48,263 nt of DNA from positions 1-48,263 of the IMG/VR virus record IMGVR_UViG_2534681708_000006; one strand, given 5' to 3'. Under the pieces are notes generated by a model. It was not told the origin of the DNA and searched no databases. It was given only the letters and a program-made list of their open reading frames with translations. Of the stretch, positions 6,205 to 40,498 are shown piece after piece. Position numbers and translations under genes: made by a program. Origin of the DNA: a virus. Its lineage: Duplodnaviria > Heunggongvirae > Uroviricota > Caudoviricetes. Numbering within the stretch: position 1 is the stretch's first letter; each line of letters begins with the position of its first letter.

Positions 6205-6501
6205 TCAGTTTGCATAAAAGAAATGAACTGATGATGCGATGCCTGAGAGTTCTTTCTGTCGTTGATAACTGATGCCGTATTTCTTGTCAGCCTCTTCAAT
6301 ACGAGCTGCGAGTAATGCGACTTCTTTAATAGCACACACATAACAATCAAATGTTCCCAGAACGTAACCGCCATCAATAATTACCGTAACGTTTTCTTTT
6401 TGGGAAATCTGAATAAAACCATGTAATGTATTCCCACATTTGAATTCGGCGAGAGAATCGTTAATGACATTAAGTTCAATTTCACATTCAATAATGCTCA
6501 T
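6205..6501 (-). CDS. Hypothetical protein (RacC position)
   Basis: ORF 6205..6549; start set at internal ATG (MSIIECE...) preceded by GGAAACAG; no recognisable motif. Confidence 0.4.
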   Translation of the reverse strand: MSIIECEIELNVINDSLAEFKCGNTLHGFIQISQKENVTVIIDGGYVLGTFDCYVCAIKEVALLAARIEEADKKYGISYQRQKELSGIASSVHFFYAN

Positions 6502-6575
6502 TTCTGTTTCCTTTTTTAAGATTGAGTGAATCCCTGCCATTGCTGGCATAAATTCAGTTTCGAATAGTCAGTTAA

Positions 6576-6752
6576 TTAAAGTTCGTGTGCCATCTGGTCT
6601 TTTTCGGCACAAGCTTCACTGCAATATTTTCTCGGTTCGTCTTTTGATAAAGTCCCGTGCATGAAGTGAAGCATTCTTTCAATAGCTTTGCTTTCTTCAA
6701 CGTCTTTTTTGCAAAGGTGGTAAGCACATTTTATTTTCTTATCTATCACCAT
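6576..6752 (-). CDS. Small zinc-binding protein (YdaE-like), 58 aa
   Basis: Below the 60-aa cutoff of the ORF track; hand-translated as [58 protein letters not shown] with paired Cys; start overlaps the kilR stop. Confidence 0.45.
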
Positions 6753-6967
6753 GACTCTGCTTTTACAGGTAAACCATCACGACCGAGGAAGACTTTAATC
6801 ATGCGGTCAGAAATGCATGTTTTTGTAGTCAGGCTCCGAATATAAAGTTTTCGCTTTTTAATATTGTTTGCCGAGGCGATATATGTCCGACCTTCATGAA
6901 GAACATAATCGCCAGGGGTCACACACTGACGTGGTATTTCATCAGTTCCGAAGTGATGAGCAATCAT
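6746..6967 (-). CDS. kilR: KilR-like cell-division (FtsZ) inhibitor
   Basis: 73-aa product from internal ATG ([21 protein letters not shown]...) with GGAGAT RBS; recalled as Rac KilR; position between recE and the immunity region. Confidence 0.6.
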
Positions 6968-7302
6968 AATTATCTCCATTTTTACAAATGAATTTTGTCG
7001 ATGCGGTGCCTGGTGCCTCCAGGTGACGTTAACCAGTTAACAATTAACGCCGGATAATCCACCCATAACACTGATGCTTTTAACTGTGCCGCGTGCGCTT
7101 AGCCGCATTCACCGCATCACAAAATTCACTTTAAAAAGGGCAGACATCAGTCGTACTTCAAGAAAAAACTGATGCCGCCAAGACTACACACAGCAGTGTT
7201 GTTATTCACAACCGGAGGCGCACTCCCACCATTTAAATTTCACAGACAAGACCGACTCTTTATGGATACCGGAAATGCGCCTTCGTGTTGTATGCCTGTC
7301 TT

Positions 7303-7330
7303 TTTACCACTTCAGGCTCGGTGGTATACT
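7303..7330 (+). promoter_or_regulatory. Candidate sigma-70 promoter (TTTACC -N16- TATACT) for the plus-strand small gene
   Basis: Hexamers read directly about 35 nt upstream of ATG 7363; coordinates approximate. Confidence 0.35.
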
Positions 7331-7362: not shown

Positions 7363-7596
7363 ATGCCTATTCAATCTCAACACAAAAATATTGATTATCT
7401 TTCCGCCAGATTAGAGGCTACCACGCTTGTTCTTGAAGAATTTGTTAAACTTCTTACGCCAGAGCAGCGTGAAAAACTGAATCTGGCAATTGCCGGGCGT
7501 TGTCCGGGCGTGAAAAATGCGTCTCTCAGGAATAGAAATTCTCCCGCATATCAATTATTACAGTTCATCAATGATGGCGTCCGCAGCAGCGATTAA
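7363..7596 (+). CDS. Small hypothetical protein (77 aa), convergent with the early-left operon
   Basis: ATG with AGGA RBS inside ORF 7285..7596; occupies the slot where Rac/lambda carry sieB; soluble, no TM segment, so not SieB itself. Confidence 0.4.
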   Translation: MPIQSQHKNIDYLSARLEATTLVLEEFVKLLTPEQREKLNLAIAGRCPGVKNASLRNRNSPAYQLLQFINDGVRSSD

Positions 7597-7863
7597 TTTT
7601 TCTAATGCCTCTTCGACATGATAATTGTATGGTTGTAGTGACCTGACATCTGTAATTGCATTAGCCAGGATTCGTGCCATTACGGCTGGTGCGATTTTTT
7701 TTGCTACTGATACCCGGCTGGCGAGTTCCAGTGCGAGACGTGCCTGCCTTGGAGTTAGCTCTCTCTCCTTTGCCATTGTTGATGCTTGTACAGACAATTC
7801 ATACGCCAGGCAAAATACAGCATTATTCGTTTCTGGCGGGTCAATACTCTGAGTAAATGTCAT
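7558..7863 (-). CDS. Hypothetical protein, first gene of the leftward early operon
   Basis: 101 aa; strong RBS AAGGGGAGAG; immediately downstream of a TTGACT-N17-TAATAT promoter. Confidence 0.5.
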   Translation of the reverse strand: MTFTQSIDPPETNNAVFCLAYELSVQASTMAKERELTPRQARLALELASRVSVAKKIAPAVMARILANAITDVRSLQPYNYHVEEALEKLIAAADAIIDEL

Positions 7864-7930
7864 CTTATCTCTCCCCTTAACGCCGGGTGGCGGAACTAAA
7901 ACCTACAGCGCCGTGCTGTTCTTGATAGAA

Positions 7931-7959
7931 ATATTAGTAATACGGATATTTCAAGTCAA
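7931..7959 (-). promoter_or_regulatory. pL-like early-left promoter (TTGACT -N17- TAATAT on minus strand)
   Basis: Near-consensus -35/-10 with 17-nt spacer upstream of gene 7558..7863. Confidence 0.5.
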
Positions 7960-8056
7960 CAGTGTGACGTATGATGTTTTTGATTTGGTAACTAAGTAAA
8001 TGTTTTTTCAAGGGAAAAATATTAGTTATACAGCTGATTTGCAGAAGTTATGGCAC

Positions 8057-8087
8057 AAAAAAACCGACTAAGACGTCGGTTTTTTTT
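8057..8087. terminator. Bidirectional intrinsic terminator (A7 - CCGAC/GTCGG hairpin - T8)
   Basis: Short GC stem flanked by an A-run and a T-run, just downstream of the racR stop. Confidence 0.5.
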
Positions 8088-8113
8088 GTTGTGGATTGGG
8101 TAGTGAGCGGTGG

Positions 8114-8575
8114 CTACTGGTTGCGTTTCTTTAGTGCCAGCATGTTCTCGAAGGCTTCCTCGTAGAGCTTGTTTAGTCCACGTAGCTGGTTAAGGAGTTT
8201 GGCTTTTTCTGACGCAGGTAGAATCTCGAAGAGGTTAAGTAACTCTGCCTGTTCTTCATTGACCAGCCTCCATCCTTTGCCTGAAAAGCTATCATCATAA
8301 GTATCTGATGATCTTACATAATTCATTAAGTCTTTAAGGTCTTCTCGAATGTCCTCTGGTTTTACCTTTAACAGAGCCGCAAATTTTAGCGCAGCGTCGG
8401 TATTTACCGGTATCTTGCCGTTCAGATACTGACTAACGGTGCCTTGAGATTCGAATCCCAACAACTCAGCCGCCAGCTCTTGAGTCAGCTTCAGCTCTTT
8501 TTTTCTTGCATTCCATGCGGCTTTTAAATTCTTGCTCGCTTCTGGAGTTGCAATCACGTCACGTGTTTTTTTCAT
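8114..8575 (-). CDS. racR: RacR-like prophage repressor (N-terminal HTH)
   Basis: 153 aa; HTH segment LTQELAAELLGFESQGTVSQYLNGK; divergent from a Cro-like gene. Confidence 0.8.
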   Translation of the reverse strand: MKKTRDVIATPEASKNLKAAWNARKKELKLTQELAAELLGFESQGTVSQYLNGKIPVNTDAALKFAALLKVKPEDIREDLKDLMNYVRSSDTYDDSFSGKGWRLVNEEQAELLNLFEILPASEKAKLLNQLRGLNKLYEEAFENMLALKKRNQ

Positions 8576-8581
8576 ACATAG

Positions 8582-8609
8582 AGTTTATTTGTTTTACCAA
8601 TATTATCAA
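8582..8609 (-). promoter_or_regulatory. pRM-like promoter for racR (TTGATA -N16- TAAACT), predicts leaderless racR mRNA
   Basis: -10 hexamer ends 6 nt before the racR ATG and no SD is present. Confidence 0.4.
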
Positions 8610-8632
8610 AGATAGTCTGACTATTGATCTTT
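8608..8632. promoter_or_regulatory. Candidate operator: palindrome ATAGTCTGACTAT within a longer imperfect inverted repeat (AAAGAT...ATCTTT)
   Basis: 13-bp perfect palindrome between/overlapping the divergent -35 elements. Confidence 0.4.
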
Positions 8633-8652
8633 AAAATTAGTGGGGCTAATAT
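8624..8652 (+). promoter_or_regulatory. pR-like promoter for ydaS/ydaT (TTGATC -N17- TAATAT)
   Basis: Read directly; about 30 nt upstream of the ydaS ATG. Confidence 0.5.
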
Positions 8653-8682
8653 TTACTCGAGACATAACGTAGAAGGTTGGCT

Positions 8683-8958
8683 ATGAACTTAAGAGACTAT
8701 TTAAAAGAGAAAAATATCACCCAGCTACAGTTTGGGAAGCTAACGGGTTTATCTCAGGTGCATGTAAGTCGAGTGCTGGGGGGCTATGAAAGATTCAGCC
8801 CTGAAAAAGCATTACGTGTTGCTGAAGTAACGAATTTCGAGGTTACACCTCATGAACTCCGGCCTGATATCTACCCGAATCCGACCGATGGTTTACCTGT
8901 TGGATGTAAGGCTAACACACAAAATGCACAGGAGTTGATTCATGAAAATCAGGCATGA
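8683..8958 (+). CDS. ydaS: Cro-like HTH protein (YdaS family)
   Basis: 91 aa from ATG with AAGG RBS; HTH ITQLQFGKLTGLSQVHVSRVL; divergent from repressor. Confidence 0.7.
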   Translation: MNLRDYLKEKNITQLQFGKLTGLSQVHVSRVLGGYERFSPEKALRVAEVTNFEVTPHELRPDIYPNPTDGLPVGCKANTQNAQELIHENQA

Positions 8959-9364
8959 GCACATTGAATCAGTGCTGTTAGCCCTGGCCGCTGAAAAAGG
9001 GCAGGCATGGGTAGCCAATGCAATTACTGAAGAATATCTGCGCCAGGGGGGCGGCGAATTGCCCCTGGTACCAGGCAAGGACTGGAACAATCATCAGAAT
9101 ATCTATCACCGTTGGTTGAAAGGTGAAACGAAAGCGCAAAGGGAAAAAATTCAGAAACTGATCCCTGCGGTTCTGGCAATTCTTCCGCGCGAGCTGCGTC
9201 ACCGACTCTGCATCTTCGATACCCTGGAACGCCGTGCATTACTGGCGGCGCAGGAAGCGTTGAGTACGGCAATTGATGCGCATGATGACGCAGTCCAGGC
9301 CGTTTACCGTAAAGCGCATTTCAGCGGCGGCGGGTCTTCCGACGATTCTTTCATTGTTCATTAA
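8942..9364 (+). CDS. ydaT: YdaT-like protein (Rac prophage YdaS/YdaT module)
   Basis: 140 aa, MKIRHEHIESVLLALAAEKGQAWVANAITEEYL...; start overlaps ydaS end; GGAG RBS. Confidence 0.7.
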   Translation: MKIRHEHIESVLLALAAEKGQAWVANAITEEYLRQGGGELPLVPGKDWNNHQNIYHRWLKGETKAQREKIQKLIPAVLAILPRELRHRLCIFDTLERRALLAAQEALSTAIDAHDDAVQAVYRKAHFSGGGSSDDSFIVH

Positions 9365-9427
9365 GCAAAAGTTTCCATGCTGTTTGTGCTTATTGTAAGC
9401 CACCGGGCAGCATCATACGGGGCAATT

Positions 9428-10447
9428 ATGGCCGCATTACCATACATGCAACTGTACATAGCTGATTACCTGGCTGACACCATGCATTTGTCAGCAGAGG
9501 AGCACGGTGCGTATTTGTTGCTGATGTTCAATTACTGGCAAACAGGAAAGCCAATACCCAAAAACAGGCTGGCAAAAATTTCCCGTCTGACTAACGAGCG
9601 ATGGGCTGATGTGGAACCATCCTTGCGGGAGTTTTTTTGCGATAACGGCGATGAATGGGTGCATCTTCGGATTGAGGAAGATCTGGCATCAGTCAGGGAA
9701 AAATTAACCAAAAAATCAGCCGCCGGAAAAGCATCTGTTCAAGCCAGAAGAAGCAGAAAGGAAGCAGATATTCAAAAAAAACAAGAGAGAGATTTAACAG
9801 GTGTTCAAACAAATGTTGGTGTGGTGTTTGAACATGACGCAAACACAAAAGCAACTAATAAAGATACAGATACAGATCTAAAAGAATTAAACCCCACACA
9901 TAGCGCGCGCGTGCGCGAGAGTGCTCCGACCAGTGAGTCGAATGGTTTGCCGTTGCAGGCAGCGGAACCTGATTACCTGGAAGGCCTGAGCGAACCTATC
10001 GGAAAATTTCCGATGACCGACGGCTGGAATCCGTCGCCGGATTTCCGACGACGGGCTGCACTGTGGGGAGCGGCTCCGCCAGAGCCGGAATTTACACCTG
10101 CTGAACTTGCCGCCTTCCGGGACTACTGGGCAGCGGAGGGGAAAGTTTTCACGCAGGTTCAGTGGGAACAGAAATTCGCCCGTCACGTAAATCACGTCAG
10201 GGCGCAGGTTAAACCAGTCAGCAAGGGGGTGAACCATGCAGCAAAGCCAGGTGGCACTGCATCACGGGCAGTTCAGGAAATTCGGGCAGCACGTGAGCAG
10301 TGGGAACGTGAAAATGGATTTATCCGCGACGGAAACGGCGTGGAAACTGTGGGAACTCATGGGGGAGGTTTATTCGAACCGCTGGACCCAGAAGAACGGG
10401 GCCGCACCTTCGAAGCTCTGGATTGCACAGATTGGCGCGATGACTGA
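9428..10447 (+). CDS. YdaU-like DUF1376-type replication-associated protein
   Basis: N-terminus MAALPYMQLYIADYLADTMHLSAEEHGAYLLLMFNYWQTGK; start at internal ATG of ORF 9377..10447; 3-prime 211 nt overlap the next ORF. Confidence 0.55.
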   Translation: MAALPYMQLYIADYLADTMHLSAEEHGAYLLLMFNYWQTGKPIPKNRLAKISRLTNERWADVEPSLREFFCDNGDEWVHLRIEEDLASVREKLTKKSAAGKASVQARRSRKEADIQKKQERDLTGVQTNVGVVFEHDANTKATNKDTDTDLKELNPTHSARVRESAPTSESNGLPLQAAEPDYLEGLSEPIGKFPMTDGWNPSPDFRRRAALWGAAPPEPEFTPAELAAFRDYWAAEGKVFTQVQWEQKFARHVNHVRAQVKPVSKGVNHAAKPGGTASRAVQEIRAAREQWERENGFIRDGNGVETVGTHGGGLFEPLDPEERGRTFEALDCTDWRDD

Positions 10448-15740: not shown

Positions 15741-15965
15741 ATGGATGGCCCCCGTAAAGGGGAACGCTATTTACCTGGAAGGATTCTAATGAAGAGTTTT
15801 GATAAATTGCGTGAAGCTTTGAGTGAAAATGGACTCTATGCGGTGCGTATCGAAAATGGAGAAATAATTTACACAACTGTAATCCCGGAAGATCATATAA
15901 TTTTATCTGTTGAAGCTTTTATCGAATACATTGAAAGGATTGGTTTTAAGGTCATACGGGATTGA
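15741..15965 (+). CDS. Small hypothetical protein (74 aa, or 58 aa from ATG 15789)
   Basis: Two candidate starts each with an RBS; a TTGCCT-N16-TAGAAT promoter-like sequence lies about 40 nt upstream; function unknown. Confidence 0.4.
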   Translation: MDGPRKGERYLPGRILMKSFDKLREALSENGLYAVRIENGEIIYTTVIPEDHIILSVEAFIEYIERIGFKVIRD

Positions 15966-39614: not shown

Positions 39615-39962
39615 ATGAGAACATGGGGCCGCGTCACTGACGCGAACGGCAACAAAAAATGGGTTGCAGTAGAATCTGACACCAGCGGTGATTTCTCCTA
39701 CGGCTGGCTGACGACGCTCATTCAGACGTTAAAGCTGGGGTTGGGGGAGTCGCCGTTTTACGCGAATTACGGCATTCCTGCGCAGCAGTGCATCGTGCAG
39801 CAGATTTACCCGGACTACTATGTGAACATGGTTCAGCAACAGTTTGCCGGGTATTTTGCATCGCTGGCAATTTCAAAGGTAGATGGGGCAGAGAACCCCA
39901 CCTATAACATCGATGTTGTGTTTTTTAACGGAACCAGTTACCGGACGCAGGTTCCGGTTTGA
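39615..39962 (+). CDS. Hypothetical protein (gpW-like baseplate position)
   Basis: 115 aa from ATG inside ORF 39582..39962. Confidence 0.4.
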   Translation: MRTWGRVTDANGNKKWVAVESDTSGDFSYGWLTTLIQTLKLGLGESPFYANYGIPAQQCIVQQIYPDYYVNMVQQQFAGYFASLAISKVDGAENPTYNIDVVFFNGTSYRTQVPV

Positions 39963-40498
39963 GGCAAGTTTTCGGGTATCAATTGGGCCAGTGGCGTATT
40001 AAGAAGTTCATCGCGTGGCATGACAATCCATCCACTTTTGCGTAGTAAGTGAATTGCCCATTCTGTGGTTATAACTGAGCCTGATTTGTGGTGCTCAATG
40101 TGGGTAACCGATCCGTTTCTGACGCGCATGATGATGTCAACATTCAGAGGGGGTTGTGTGCTGGTAGTTTCTTCGCGTAGTTTCTTCTCGCACTCGATGA
40201 AGTATCGGCGGATCTGGCGGCCTTTTTCGTTGCGTTCGACCATAGCCAGCTCTTTGGCGGTGTCCAGGGTGAGATGGTAGTCTTTGGCTGGTCTGCCTCT
40301 ACCGATTTTTTCCCGATTTTGGGAAATAATCAAAAAGTCCTGATTTTCTACGAATTCATACTCGCTGATTCGTTCGGTAATCCAAGTGGCAAAGCGTTTA
40401 CCTACTTCGAGAAAGGCATGCAGATCGCGAGCGTTGCATAGAAGGATGGTTTCGTTCGAAATGGTTCCGTTGAACACGGTGATGAGTTGGGTGGTCAT
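39938..40498 (-). CDS. Antirepressor (AntA-type N-terminal domain)
   Basis: 186 aa from MTTQLITVFNGTISNETILLCNARDLHAFLEVGKRFATWITERI; AAGAGG RBS; opposite strand within tail module. Confidence 0.6.
   Translation of the reverse strand: MTTQLITVFNGTISNETILLCNARDLHAFLEVGKRFATWITERISEYEFVENQDFLIISQNREKIGRGRPAKDYHLTLDTAKELAMVERNEKGRQIRRYFIECEKKLREETTSTQPPLNVDIIMRVRNGSVTHIEHHKSGSVITTEWAIHLLRKSGWIVMPRDELLNTPLAQLIPENLPQTGTCVR

Follow-up and report, generated by a model that had tools for sequence, protein, structure and literature searches.

The stretch of DNA analysed here (48,263 nucleotides, called the window below) contains a lambdoid on/off control region, which consists of a repressor gene, an opposing cro-like gene, promoters and operators. 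Judged from its sequence, the segment 7900–8935 represents the immunity cassette in a Rac-type lambdoid prophage that appears intact, and its mode of action most likely resembles that of lambda cI and Cro. The same type of switch has already been mapped in phage lambda, in the Rac prophage of K-12 and in CP-933P, and the present case is a new sequence variant of it. We will show that the leaderless repressor mRNA proposed for this region is well supported by comparison with related loci, while the identification of the repressor as RacR and the role of a central palindrome as the single shared operator are not.

The segment 7900–8935 is a heteroimmune cassette exchanged into a Rac backbone. 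It has no DNA similarity to K-12 Rac, its flanks are 95–100% identical to that prophage, and the boundary is clean. The cassette region is 98% identical to the enterotoxin LT-IIa phage Rac-SA53, which also carries it, and blocks matching Rac-SA53 extend over most of the 48-kb window. A literature search on this phage did not find a study of its immunity region. The cassette is present in about 180 of 5,426 complete E. coli genomes, many of them from Shiga-toxin-producing strains of animal and food origin. The gene order is that of an HTH repressor, a divergent YdaS-family Cro and then a YdaT/CII-like protein:

8114–8575, minus strand: immunity repressor, 153 aa, with a lambda cI-like N-terminal HTH and DicA-like C-terminal helices, without S24 peptidase domain
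8683–8958, plus strand: Cro-like YdaS-family regulator, 91 aa, with Shine-Dalgarno AGAAGG at 8671–8676
8942–9364, plus strand: YdaT, CII-like activator, its gene lying within a block 95.6% identical to K-12 Rac DNA
8935–8952, no strand assigned: inverted repeat of the YdaT type, TTGATTcatgaaAATCAG, where ydaS and ydaT meet; a candidate for a CII-like site that would serve an establishment promoter

The repressor and cro-like genes are 107 bp apart, and both pRM and pR are located between them. Divergent repressor and Cro-like genes around a short intergenic region with both promoters are what is expected of a lambdoid switch.

The repressor had originally been named racR, and this identity has to be abandoned. 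A BLASTP comparison with K-12 RacR gives E = 27, that is, no protein similarity, and the cassette DNA differs as well; the missing protein similarity together with the clean cassette boundary rules out membership of the RacR family. Residues 12–78 match PDB entries 3kz3 and 1lmb (E = 3e-4 to 1e-3), as expected for a cI-type HTH, and there is a Pfam HTH_3 match. Residues E33 and E37 align with E34 and D38 of lambda cI, the positive-control residues of lambda, and both positions are acidic in 9/9 aligned family members. The C-terminal 42 aa are 38% identical to DicA (E = 7e-6). With the DicA subfamily model (NCBIfam NF007257), residues 18–152 align to profile positions 7–132 of 135, which is nearly the full length, at a score of 35.1 bits versus a curated cut-off of 101, and the protein thus falls outside the subfamily as curated. 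PaaR2 shows no significant overall similarity (E = 7.6) and has only an ELLxLFxxLP-type C-terminal motif in common with it. In relatives with repressors 91–92% identical overall, the HTH region is unchanged (shown for P0007/L017).

No match to a Peptidase_S24 domain with its cleavage site was found in the repressor, which is only 153 aa long; PF00717 is present in more distant proteins that have the same HTH domain. Since the repressor has no autocleavage domain, induction would probably proceed through an antirepressor. Homologues of Rem (15789–15965) and Ant (39941–40498) are encoded in the window.

The two downstream proteins fall within their families. The Cro-like protein scores 30.9 bits against YdaS (PF15943), for which the Pfam gathering cut-off is 30, and YdaT scores 44 bits against PF06254 (cut-off 21), with a PHROG match to a CII-like activator at E = 3e-36. 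The YdaT-type repeat is located inside a 34-nt block common with CP-933P, where a YdaT footprint has been reported at TTGATT-N6-AATCAA (PMC9986795).

The promoter and operator assignments for the cassette are inferred from motifs and from their conservation in a comparison set of 15 related loci that represent some seven lineages. The promoters and the terminator are the following:

7931–7959, minus strand: pL promoter, -35 TTGACT (7959–7954), N17, -10 TAATAT (7936–7931)
8624–8652, plus strand: pR promoter, -35 TTGATC, N17, -10 TAATAT
8582–8609, minus strand: pRM-like promoter, -35 TTGATA (8609–8604), N16, -10 TAAACT (8587–8582), then 6 nt (CTATGT) and the ATG
8057–8087, both directions: intrinsic terminator, A7 (8057–8063), stem CCGAC/GTCGG with a 6-nt loop, T8 (8080–8087)

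The original prediction of divergent pL- and pR-like promoters with the same -10 hexamer holds, both motifs being present with the spacing given, but the description near-consensus is generous, as pL scores 9/12 and pR 8/12, below the threshold of the scanner. Promoter matches are not significantly enriched in the 1.5-kb region, with 5 sites versus 2.9 ± 1.7 in shuffles. As the listed motifs are not significant singly, their reality rests on their conservation at fixed positions in the related loci, and this position-for-position conservation argues that they are real. A TTGAYN-N16-18-TAATAT promoter is found at the place of pL, after the repressor terminator, in 15 loci, and the TTGAYN and TAATAT of pR are kept in all relatives. 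The predicted pL start is near 7923–7925, from where it would drive the leftward operon (first ORF 7558–7863), and that of pR is near 8659–8660, which would give a leader of 23–24 nt. An Rfam search on the pL and pR leaders returned no known RNA family, and a hairpin in the pL leader is not more stable than shuffles.

The bidirectional A-run/hairpin/T-run terminator that had been described after the repressor gene is indeed there, 27 nt past the stop codon. On either strand its folding is favorable (z = -5.1 for the minus and -4.4 for the plus strand), and a hairpin with a T-run occupies this position in all relatives. The consensus scanner did not report this terminator, solely because the scanner lengthens the stem into the A/T runs.

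Very probably, the repressor gene is transcribed into an mRNA without a leader, as the arrangement upstream of it suggests. The -10 hexamer of pRM (score 9/12) ends 6 nt before the ATG, close to the 7 nt or so originally given, and the predicted start is the A of that ATG, at 8575, so that the maintenance mRNA would have no leader. A start codon further upstream is impossible, because TAAACT itself begins with the stop codon TAA in frame with the gene; the protein is expected to begin with MKKTR. No Shine-Dalgarno sequence was found for the repressor: the 20 nt upstream pair with the anti-SD at +1.6 kcal/mol, compared to -5.8 kcal/mol for the cro-like gene. A -10 placed for a start at the A of the AUG, together with a missing Shine-Dalgarno, is the arrangement of the leaderless class.

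The related loci support this strongly. A TAnnnT -10-like hexamer is located 6–7 nt before the repressor ATG in 15/16 loci, and the neighbouring cro genes keep a Shine-Dalgarno, the control values for the cro genes holding for a subset of the loci only. TAAACT is invariant across four close relatives, and the spacing of 6–7 nt is retained in some seven lineages with differing surrounding sequence. In L017/L018 the pRM -35 is reduced to the weaker TCGATT, which would be expected if the promoter is activated. A leaderless repressor transcript has been mapped in lambda. In CP-933P, 5' RACE together with N-terminal sequencing showed that transcription starts on the A of the ATG (PMC8630535), and the main transcript of K-12 racR is likewise leaderless, although two of its three mapped starts are leadered (PMC9638921). 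With the present repressor, the small set of E. coli prophage repressor families with a leaderless mRNA grows to four, the support for the new one being comparative.

Another option considered was that the repressor is made mainly from leadered transcripts, either from other intergenic promoters or from a YdaT-dependent establishment promoter, with TAAACT being incidental. The leadered K-12 starts speak in favor of this, and possible sources are a second minus-strand TAATAT at 8605–8600 and the YdaT-type site at 8935–8952. However, this TAATAT has no -35 and becomes TTTTAT in L017/L018, and it was therefore rejected as a second, leadered pRM. Moreover, a leadered transcript would still be without a Shine-Dalgarno, and neither the invariance of TAAACT nor its constant distance to the ATG fits an incidental hexamer. 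We consider this scenario very unlikely, and the leaderless transcript from pRM is retained as the predicted maintenance mRNA.

The candidate operators, with distances given relative to the repressor ATG and no strand assigned, are the following:

7932–7948: OL1 operator TATTAGTAATACGGATA, core TTAGT-N3-ACGGA, centre 7940, overlapping the pL spacer and -10
8020–8036: distal OL site, tentative, TATTAGTTATACAGCTG, a 93% direct repeat of OL1, 88 bp away
8586–8602: OR3-position operator TATTTGTTTTACCAATA, centre 8594, 19 nt upstream of the ATG
8610–8626: OR2-position element with the palindrome ATAGTCTGACTAT (8612–8624), centre 8618, 43 nt upstream of the ATG
8635–8651: OR1-position operator AATTAGTGGGGCTAATA, core TTAGT-GGG-GCTAA with 1 mismatch, centre 8643, 68 nt upstream of the ATG

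Repeated operator-like sites over pR and pRM, related to one at pL, are what a lambdoid switch should have, and they are found in the sequence. OL1, the distal OL site and OR3 were linked by a repeat search without a prior model. OL1 is part of a 25-bp imperfect palindrome (7928–7952), and its block AATATCCGTATTACTAATATT is kept in L017/L018 while the flanks diverge. OR3 lies over the spacer of pRM and reaches 2 nt into the -10, and it matches OL1 better (13/17) than anything else in the surrounding 5.4 kb apart from OL1 itself; a site is present at the same offset in 15/15 loci. OR1 overlaps the pR spacer and -10, with a site at offset 66–70 in 15/15 loci. Its match to OL1 within the window is modest, 10/17, and comes partly from the shared -10 hexamer. 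When the OL1 17-mer of each locus is used on its own locus, the best matches are at offsets 19–20 and 66–70 in all 15 loci, and these are usually among the top few in 5.4 kb.

The half-sites appear to be the constrained part. In relatives with a 91–92% identical repressor they are retained, and the changes fall in the spacers and the central 3 nt; in OR1 of L017, for example, the centre CCC becomes TAT between conserved half-sites. The pattern TTAGT-N3-ACTAA has 17 matches in the window, of which 4 are within 268 bp of regulatory DNA (binomial 2e-6, for a pattern that was chosen from these very sites). On the left side, conservation of the distal OL site is limited to its AATATTAGT half, with L017/L018 keeping only ACTAATATT, and no convincing second or third OL operator was found beside OL1 at a spacing of about 24 bp. 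A GTCA-N6-TGAC dyad at 7955–7968, considered as a further OL operator, is not kept in L003/L017 and was discarded.

The central element is the least certain of the sites, since the palindrome, unlike OR3 and OR1, does not resemble OL1, and pL is without a copy of it. The palindrome, ATAGTC-T-GACTAT, is placed between the -35 hexamers of pRM (8609–8604) and pR (8624–8629), with a 1-nt overlap with the latter. Its match to OL1, 8/17, is at background, as 450 positions in 5.4 kb score as well, and no copy was found near pL with up to 4 mismatches allowed. The palindrome as such is not significant either, with 22 perfect 6-1-6 palindromes in the window and about 11 in shuffles. A YdaT site in the central region was also considered, but the gap in its ATCAA-N14-TTGAT is 14 nt, compared to 6 nt in the footprinted sequence, and the assignment was rejected.

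The original prediction had this palindrome as the one operator common to the divergent promoters, so that a single dimer would control both pR and pRM. It is indeed the only perfect dyad of the intergenic region, located exactly between the two -35 hexamers, and L003, L017 and L018 retain most of its half-site sequence, the changes in L017/L018 falling mostly in the central 3 nt. Against this, in none of the lineages do the matches to the pL operator coincide with the palindrome; they are at offsets 19 and 68 throughout. The palindrome has no copy near pL either, so that one site cannot account for control of pL together with pR. Palindromes of this kind are, as noted, common in the window, and the L004/L005 lineage is without a central dyad. 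The palindrome is thus present where it was described, but its role as the sole shared operator is highly improbable.

We also considered the case in which OR1, OR3 and OL1 are the repressor operators and the palindrome is of another class, read by YdaS or some other factor, or is a by-product of the back-to-back -35 hexamers without binding role. Its ATAGTC half-sites are unlike those of the AATATTAGT type found at the remaining four sites, it matches OL1 no better than background, pL has no copy of it, and its outer bases are in any case constrained by the pR -35 through the conserved TATTGA. On the other hand, the core TAGT-N3-ACTA is held in common, and the central sites of L013/L014 (13/17) and L006/L008 (10/17) resemble the OL1 of their own locus. 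A dyad at offset 42–43 recurs in most lineages, and the dyad-symmetry profile averaged over lineages has weak peaks at 19, 22, 42 and 67–70 nt. The comparison with Rac-type operators that had been suggested points the same way: the footprinted O2 of K-12 Rac abuts the ydaS -35 in the same manner (PMC9638921). The missing dyad in L004/L005 speaks against an operator at this position. In our judgment a separate class is rather unlikely, and the best fit for the palindrome is the OR2 position, in the middle of a three-part OR.

The mechanism suggested by these elements would be as follows. Repressor dimers would bind sites of about 17 bp with a TTAGT-N3-ACTAA-like core at OL1 and OR1, and occupancy of these would silence the leftward and rightward early operons. 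OR3, over the spacer and -10 of pRM, could serve for negative autoregulation at high repressor concentration or for repression by the Cro-like YdaS. A protein bound at the palindrome, at the lambda OR2 position (43 vs 42 nt), would make the pR -35 inaccessible and might contact region 4 of sigma-70 at pRM. Transcription from pRM would begin at the A of the ATG, giving the leaderless maintenance mRNA, and the bidirectional terminator would insulate the repressor gene from the pL region. YdaT probably acts at the inverted repeat 8935–8952, and induction is probably effected by an antirepressor.

The importance of the cassette itself goes little beyond annotation. A correct map of promoters, operators and the leaderless start could help in predicting immunity groups and the induction of toxin-carrying or Rac-type prophages.

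Compared to lambda, the geometry is very similar. The repressor-cro gap is 100 bp in lambda and 107 bp here, the -10 is followed by 6 nt and the ATG in both cases (TAGATT and TAAACT, respectively), and the site centres are 19/42/66 nt from the ATG in lambda and 19/43/68 nt here. Both switches have a 2-nt overlap of OR3 with the pRM -10, and both have pL and an operator beyond the repressor gene. The HTH domain of lambda cI is detectably similar to that of the repressor (E = 3e-4), with acidic residues at the E34 and D38 positions, and the N-terminal domain is nearer to lambda cI than to DicA. The differences are that lambda cI has 237 aa, while the present protein has 153 aa, no S24 autocleavage domain and a DicA-like C-terminus; that Cro is of the YdaS family and YdaT takes the place of CII; that one strong OL site was found instead of three adjacent ones; and that the terminator follows directly after the repressor gene, without rexAB.

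CP-933P likewise uses YdaS as Cro and YdaT as CII (PMC8630535, PMC9986795). It has the same -10/ATG spacing (GATAAT, 6 nt, ATG), operators with TTAGT half-sites, a short repressor without cleavage domain, the same junction blocks flanking the cassette, and a YdaT inverted repeat, TTGATT-N6-AATCA(A/G), also at the ydaS/ydaT junction. In contrast to the present case, its PL and PR are identical in both the -35 and the -10 rather than in the -10 only, its palindromes are of 18 bp with an even core, with four repeats reported (PMC8630535, PMC9986795), and a paaA2-parE2 toxin-antitoxin pair stands behind the repressor, which is absent from the cassette here.

K-12 Rac (PMC9638921, PMC5700373) has its switch in the same backbone and at the same position. 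Its ydaS -10 is TAATAT, and it has three inverted-repeat operators with a 3-nt spacer (PMC9638921). As here, (G)CTAATAT marks the overlap of O1 with the -10, and CTATTGA the contact of O2 with the -35; the O2 sequence next to the ydaS -35 is GCCTATTGACA, compared to GACTATTGATC here (PMC9638921). However, the repressors are unrelated in sequence and the YdaS proteins only 32% identical, the half-site is TTAGGC rather than TTAGT, O3 is on the ATG with O2 and O1 at 61 and 87 nt rather than 19/43/68, and the region upstream of racR contains AGGAG while the present repressor has no Shine-Dalgarno. The DicA/DicC system of Qin (bioRxiv 10.1101/2023.04.14.536235) also has a short HTH repressor without cleavage site and a Rem antirepressor, of which a homologue is in the window; the palindromes between dicA and dicC are TTAGT-N4-ACTAA, whereas the core spacing here is N3.

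Four repressor families with little or no detectable sequence similarity, namely lambda cI, RacR, PaaR2 and the present cI-HTH/DicA-tail hybrid, would accordingly have one fixed geometry in common (leaderless mRNA, the pRM -10 covered by an operator, and a further site some 42–43 nt upstream), and the latter three together with DicA share TTAG-type half-sites. It is conceivable, but in our judgment quite unlikely, that this reflects cross-regulation between co-resident prophages of the Rac, Qin and CP-933P types, or that the palindrome belongs to a class of its own, recognised by a YdaS-type Cro; if this protein rather than the repressor recognised it, the switch would be wired otherwise than that of lambda. 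The family-wide retention of the lambda-like 19/43/68-nt operator geometry, despite another oligomerisation domain, is a neat but unsurprising case of the modular evolution of immunity regions.

DNA similarity to K-12 Rac is limited to three blocks, 6498-7325, 7861-7899 (39 nt, 100% identity) and 8936-9883 (95.6% identity), and the sequence at 7900-8935 is unrelated to K-12 Rac throughout. This interval is therefore a heteroimmune cassette within a Rac backbone. The cassette of CP-933P is bordered by the same two junction blocks: CP-933P shares 91-94% identity with the stretches 7872-7904 and 8931-8964, which overlap the K-12-like blocks. The junction blocks 7861-7899 and 8931-8964 look like conserved recombination joints for swapping immunity modules. 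Phage Rac-SA53 is 98% identical to this stretch, which is present in about 180 of 5,426 complete E. coli genomes; a literature search on the cassette found no study of it. Its features are as follows, the further neighbours being replication genes with DUF1376/DnaT and lambda-P-like domains.

7959..7931, minus: early promoter pL, TTGACT-N17-TAATAT
8057-8087, both strands: terminator, A7 / CCGAC-loop-GTCGG / T8
8575..8114, minus: repressor ORF, 153 aa
8587..8582, minus: -10 of the repressor promoter pRM, TAAACT, then CTATGT, then the repressor ATG
8609..8604, minus: -35 of pRM, TTGATA
8612-8624: palindrome ATAGTC-T-GACTAT, between the pR -35 and the leftward -35
8624-8652, plus: early promoter pR, TTGATC-N17-TAATAT
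8683-8958: Cro-like protein, YdaS family
8942-9364: YdaT/CII-like protein

The original prediction named the repressor RacR, but it is a different protein (BLASTP against RacR, E = 27). Residues 12-78 are similar to the N-terminal domain of lambda cI (E = 3e-4) and the last 42 residues to DicA (E = 7e-6), with a DicA model score of 35 bits, under the cut-off of 101. A domain search of the 153-aa protein found no S24 peptidase domain, and PaaR2 has no significant similarity to it. Residues E33 and E37 align with E34 and D38 of lambda cI, the positive-control residues of lambda, and all nine aligned relatives have an acidic residue at each of the two positions. The HTH domain is also found, at 43-60% identity, in proteins of 234-259 aa (P0024-P0030), where it is fused to Peptidase_S24; one DNA-binding module thus comes with a C-terminus that is either cleavable or DicA-like.

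The divergent pL and pR, predicted to share the -10 TAATAT, were indeed found, as was the bidirectional terminator after the repressor gene, which folds far better than shuffles on either strand (z = -5.1 and -4.4); a consensus terminator scanner overlooked it because the scanner extends the stem into the A/T runs. Judged individually, the promoters and the palindrome are not remarkable: the match to consensus is 9/12 for pL and pRM and 8/12 for pR, the region holds five promoter-like matches vs 2.9 +/- 1.7 in shuffles, and the window has 22 perfect 6-1-6 palindromes. A promoter-like plus-strand match, TTGATA-N17-GATATT, overlapping pL in the opposite direction (7922-7950), is probably incidental.

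A repeat search without a prior model linked AATATTAGTAATAC over the pL -10 (7930-7943) to two further copies, one direct (8018-8031) and one inverted (8591-8604), the latter within pRM. The pattern TTAGT-N3-ACTAA, with at most two mismatches, occurs at 7934-7946, 8588-8600, 8612-8624 and 8637-8649; four of its 17 window matches fall within 268 bp (binomial 2e-6), a value that overstates the case since the pattern was picked after the sites were seen. A fairer test uses a per-locus 17-mer defined solely by its position at pL. The comparison set consists of 15 loci encoding repressor relatives (43-98% identical), from Escherichia albertii, Enterobacter, Salmonella, Raoultella, Shimwellia, Citrobacter, Rouxiella, Pseudescherichia and Yersinia, a sequencing-run assembly, three Enterobacterales MAGs and a distant Competibacteraceae MAG (L015). 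In 15 of 15 loci the best intergenic matches lie 19-20 and 66-70 nt upstream of the repressor start codon, usually ranking among the top few in 5.4 kb, and the sequences vary by lineage (TATGAGCCACATTCATA in Salmonella, TATTAGTATCACGAATA in Raoultella). Relatives with a 91-92% identical repressor keep the half-sites and differ in the spacers and in the central 3 nt, the repressor being unchanged across the HTH region, as shown for P0007 at locus L017; among these relatives the centre of OR1 goes from CCC to TAT and that of the palindrome from CAG to CAA. Measured from the ATG, the centres of the three intergenic sites are at 19, 43 and 68 nt, compared with 19, 42 and 66 nt for lambda OR3, OR2 and OR1. 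No convincing second or third operator adjoins OL1, the site at pL. A 6-4-6 palindrome in the OL region, TTTTTCAAGGGAAAAA at 8004-8019, is not kept as such in L017 and is probably incidental.

The 13-bp perfect palindrome proposed as the shared operator is present between the divergent -35 elements, at the OR2 position, but no copy was found near pL, and it is the sites at 19-20 and 66-70 nt that match the pL 17-mer. Of the three intergenic sites it is the weakest: as a whole it matches the pL operator at 8/17 positions, no better than background, and a dyad at this offset is missing from the Salmonella-type lineage (L004/L005). It could instead belong to a different class of site, for instance one preferred by YdaS, to which we give roughly one chance in five. 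On the other side, it has the TAGT-N3-ACTA core in common with the other sites and is largely kept in close relatives, and a dyad at offset 42-43 is found again in most lineages, resembling the locus's own OL1 in L013/L014 (13/17) and L006/L008 (10/17). It abuts the pR -35 (GACTATTGATC); in K-12 Rac the footprinted RacR operator O2 lies against the ydaS -35 in the same way (GCCTATTGACA; PMC9638921). We read the palindrome as a putative OR2-position site.

We now turn to the repressor mRNA, predicted to be leaderless. The TAA within TAAACT is an in-frame stop of the repressor reading frame, which leaves no possible start codon ahead of the ATG. In 15 of 16 sequences, window included, 6-7 nt separate a TAnnnT hexamer from the repressor ATG downstream of it (the exception is L015, the most distant locus); the surrounding sequence varies between lineages. 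Upstream of the ATG the pairing with the anti-SD is weak (+1.6 kcal/mol in the window), compared with -4 to -10 for the neighbouring cro genes. The 6-nt spacing from TAAACT to ATG is that of lambda cI (TAGATT) and of the CP-933P repressor (GATAAT); mapping of the CP-933P transcript placed its 5' end at the A of the ATG, and the protein N-terminus was sequenced as well (PMC8630535), and the main K-12 racR transcript is leaderless (PMC9638921). By comparison, the hexamer spacing, the weak pairing and these precedents strongly support the predicted leaderless mRNA. An A-rich run directly follows the ATG (8575..8564, ATGAAAAAAACA), as in paaR2 (ATGCAAAAAAAAGAA, L016 2134-2145) and lambda cI (ATGAGCACAAAAAAGAAA, L019), whose leaderless transcripts have been mapped.

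In the mechanism that we propose, repressor at OR1 and the central site would block pR, and at OL1 it would block pL. The central site would be positioned for contact with RNA polymerase at pRM, whose -35 is weak in the window and weaker again in L017/L018. OR3 would give negative autoregulation and is probably where the Cro-like protein acts. At the ydaS/ydaT junction, the inverted repeat TTGATTcatgaaAATCAG (8935-8952) has 11 of 12 positions of the footprinted CP-933P YdaT operator TTGATT-N6-AATCAA, located at the same junction (PMC9986795); more speculatively, it probably serves a CII-like establishment promoter. Induction is probably by antirepressor, because the repressor has no cleavage domain. 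Two homologues are candidate inducers for such a repressor, and in the Qin prophage Rem relieves DicA repression (bioRxiv 10.1101/2023.04.14.536235).

15789-15965, plus: Rem homologue, 100% identical to Rac-SA53 Rem
39941-40498, minus: Ant-type antirepressor homologue, 85% identical

The pL leader (minus strand) carries the hairpins ACAGC-ACGGC-GCTGT (7905-7919) and CGCC-ACCC-GGCG (7881-7892), both kept in the heteroimmune relatives L004, L005, L017 and L018; more distant relatives (L006-L014) have a boxB-like GTCCG-GAAAGA-CGGAC at the corresponding place. These hairpins may represent a nut-like element or a leader RNA element. Their predicted stability is no better than shuffles (z = -0.1), and an Rfam search of the leaders found no known family. 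Further along the minus strand there are sub-threshold Rfam matches to DicF (7138-7192; 37 bits, gathering score 48, E = 8e-6) and STnc100 (6960-7148; 40.7 bits, gathering score 47). The segment 6960-7192 corresponds by homology to kilR-kilS of K-12 Rac, and the leftward operon may therefore encode a DicF-like small RNA.

The region shares its architecture with lambda, CP-933P and K-12 Rac, each mapped experimentally. What is new is a repressor of hybrid domain make-up whose specificity is uncharacterised and, as judged from the sequence comparison, that the predicted leaderless geometry and the operator offsets hold across this family of repressors.
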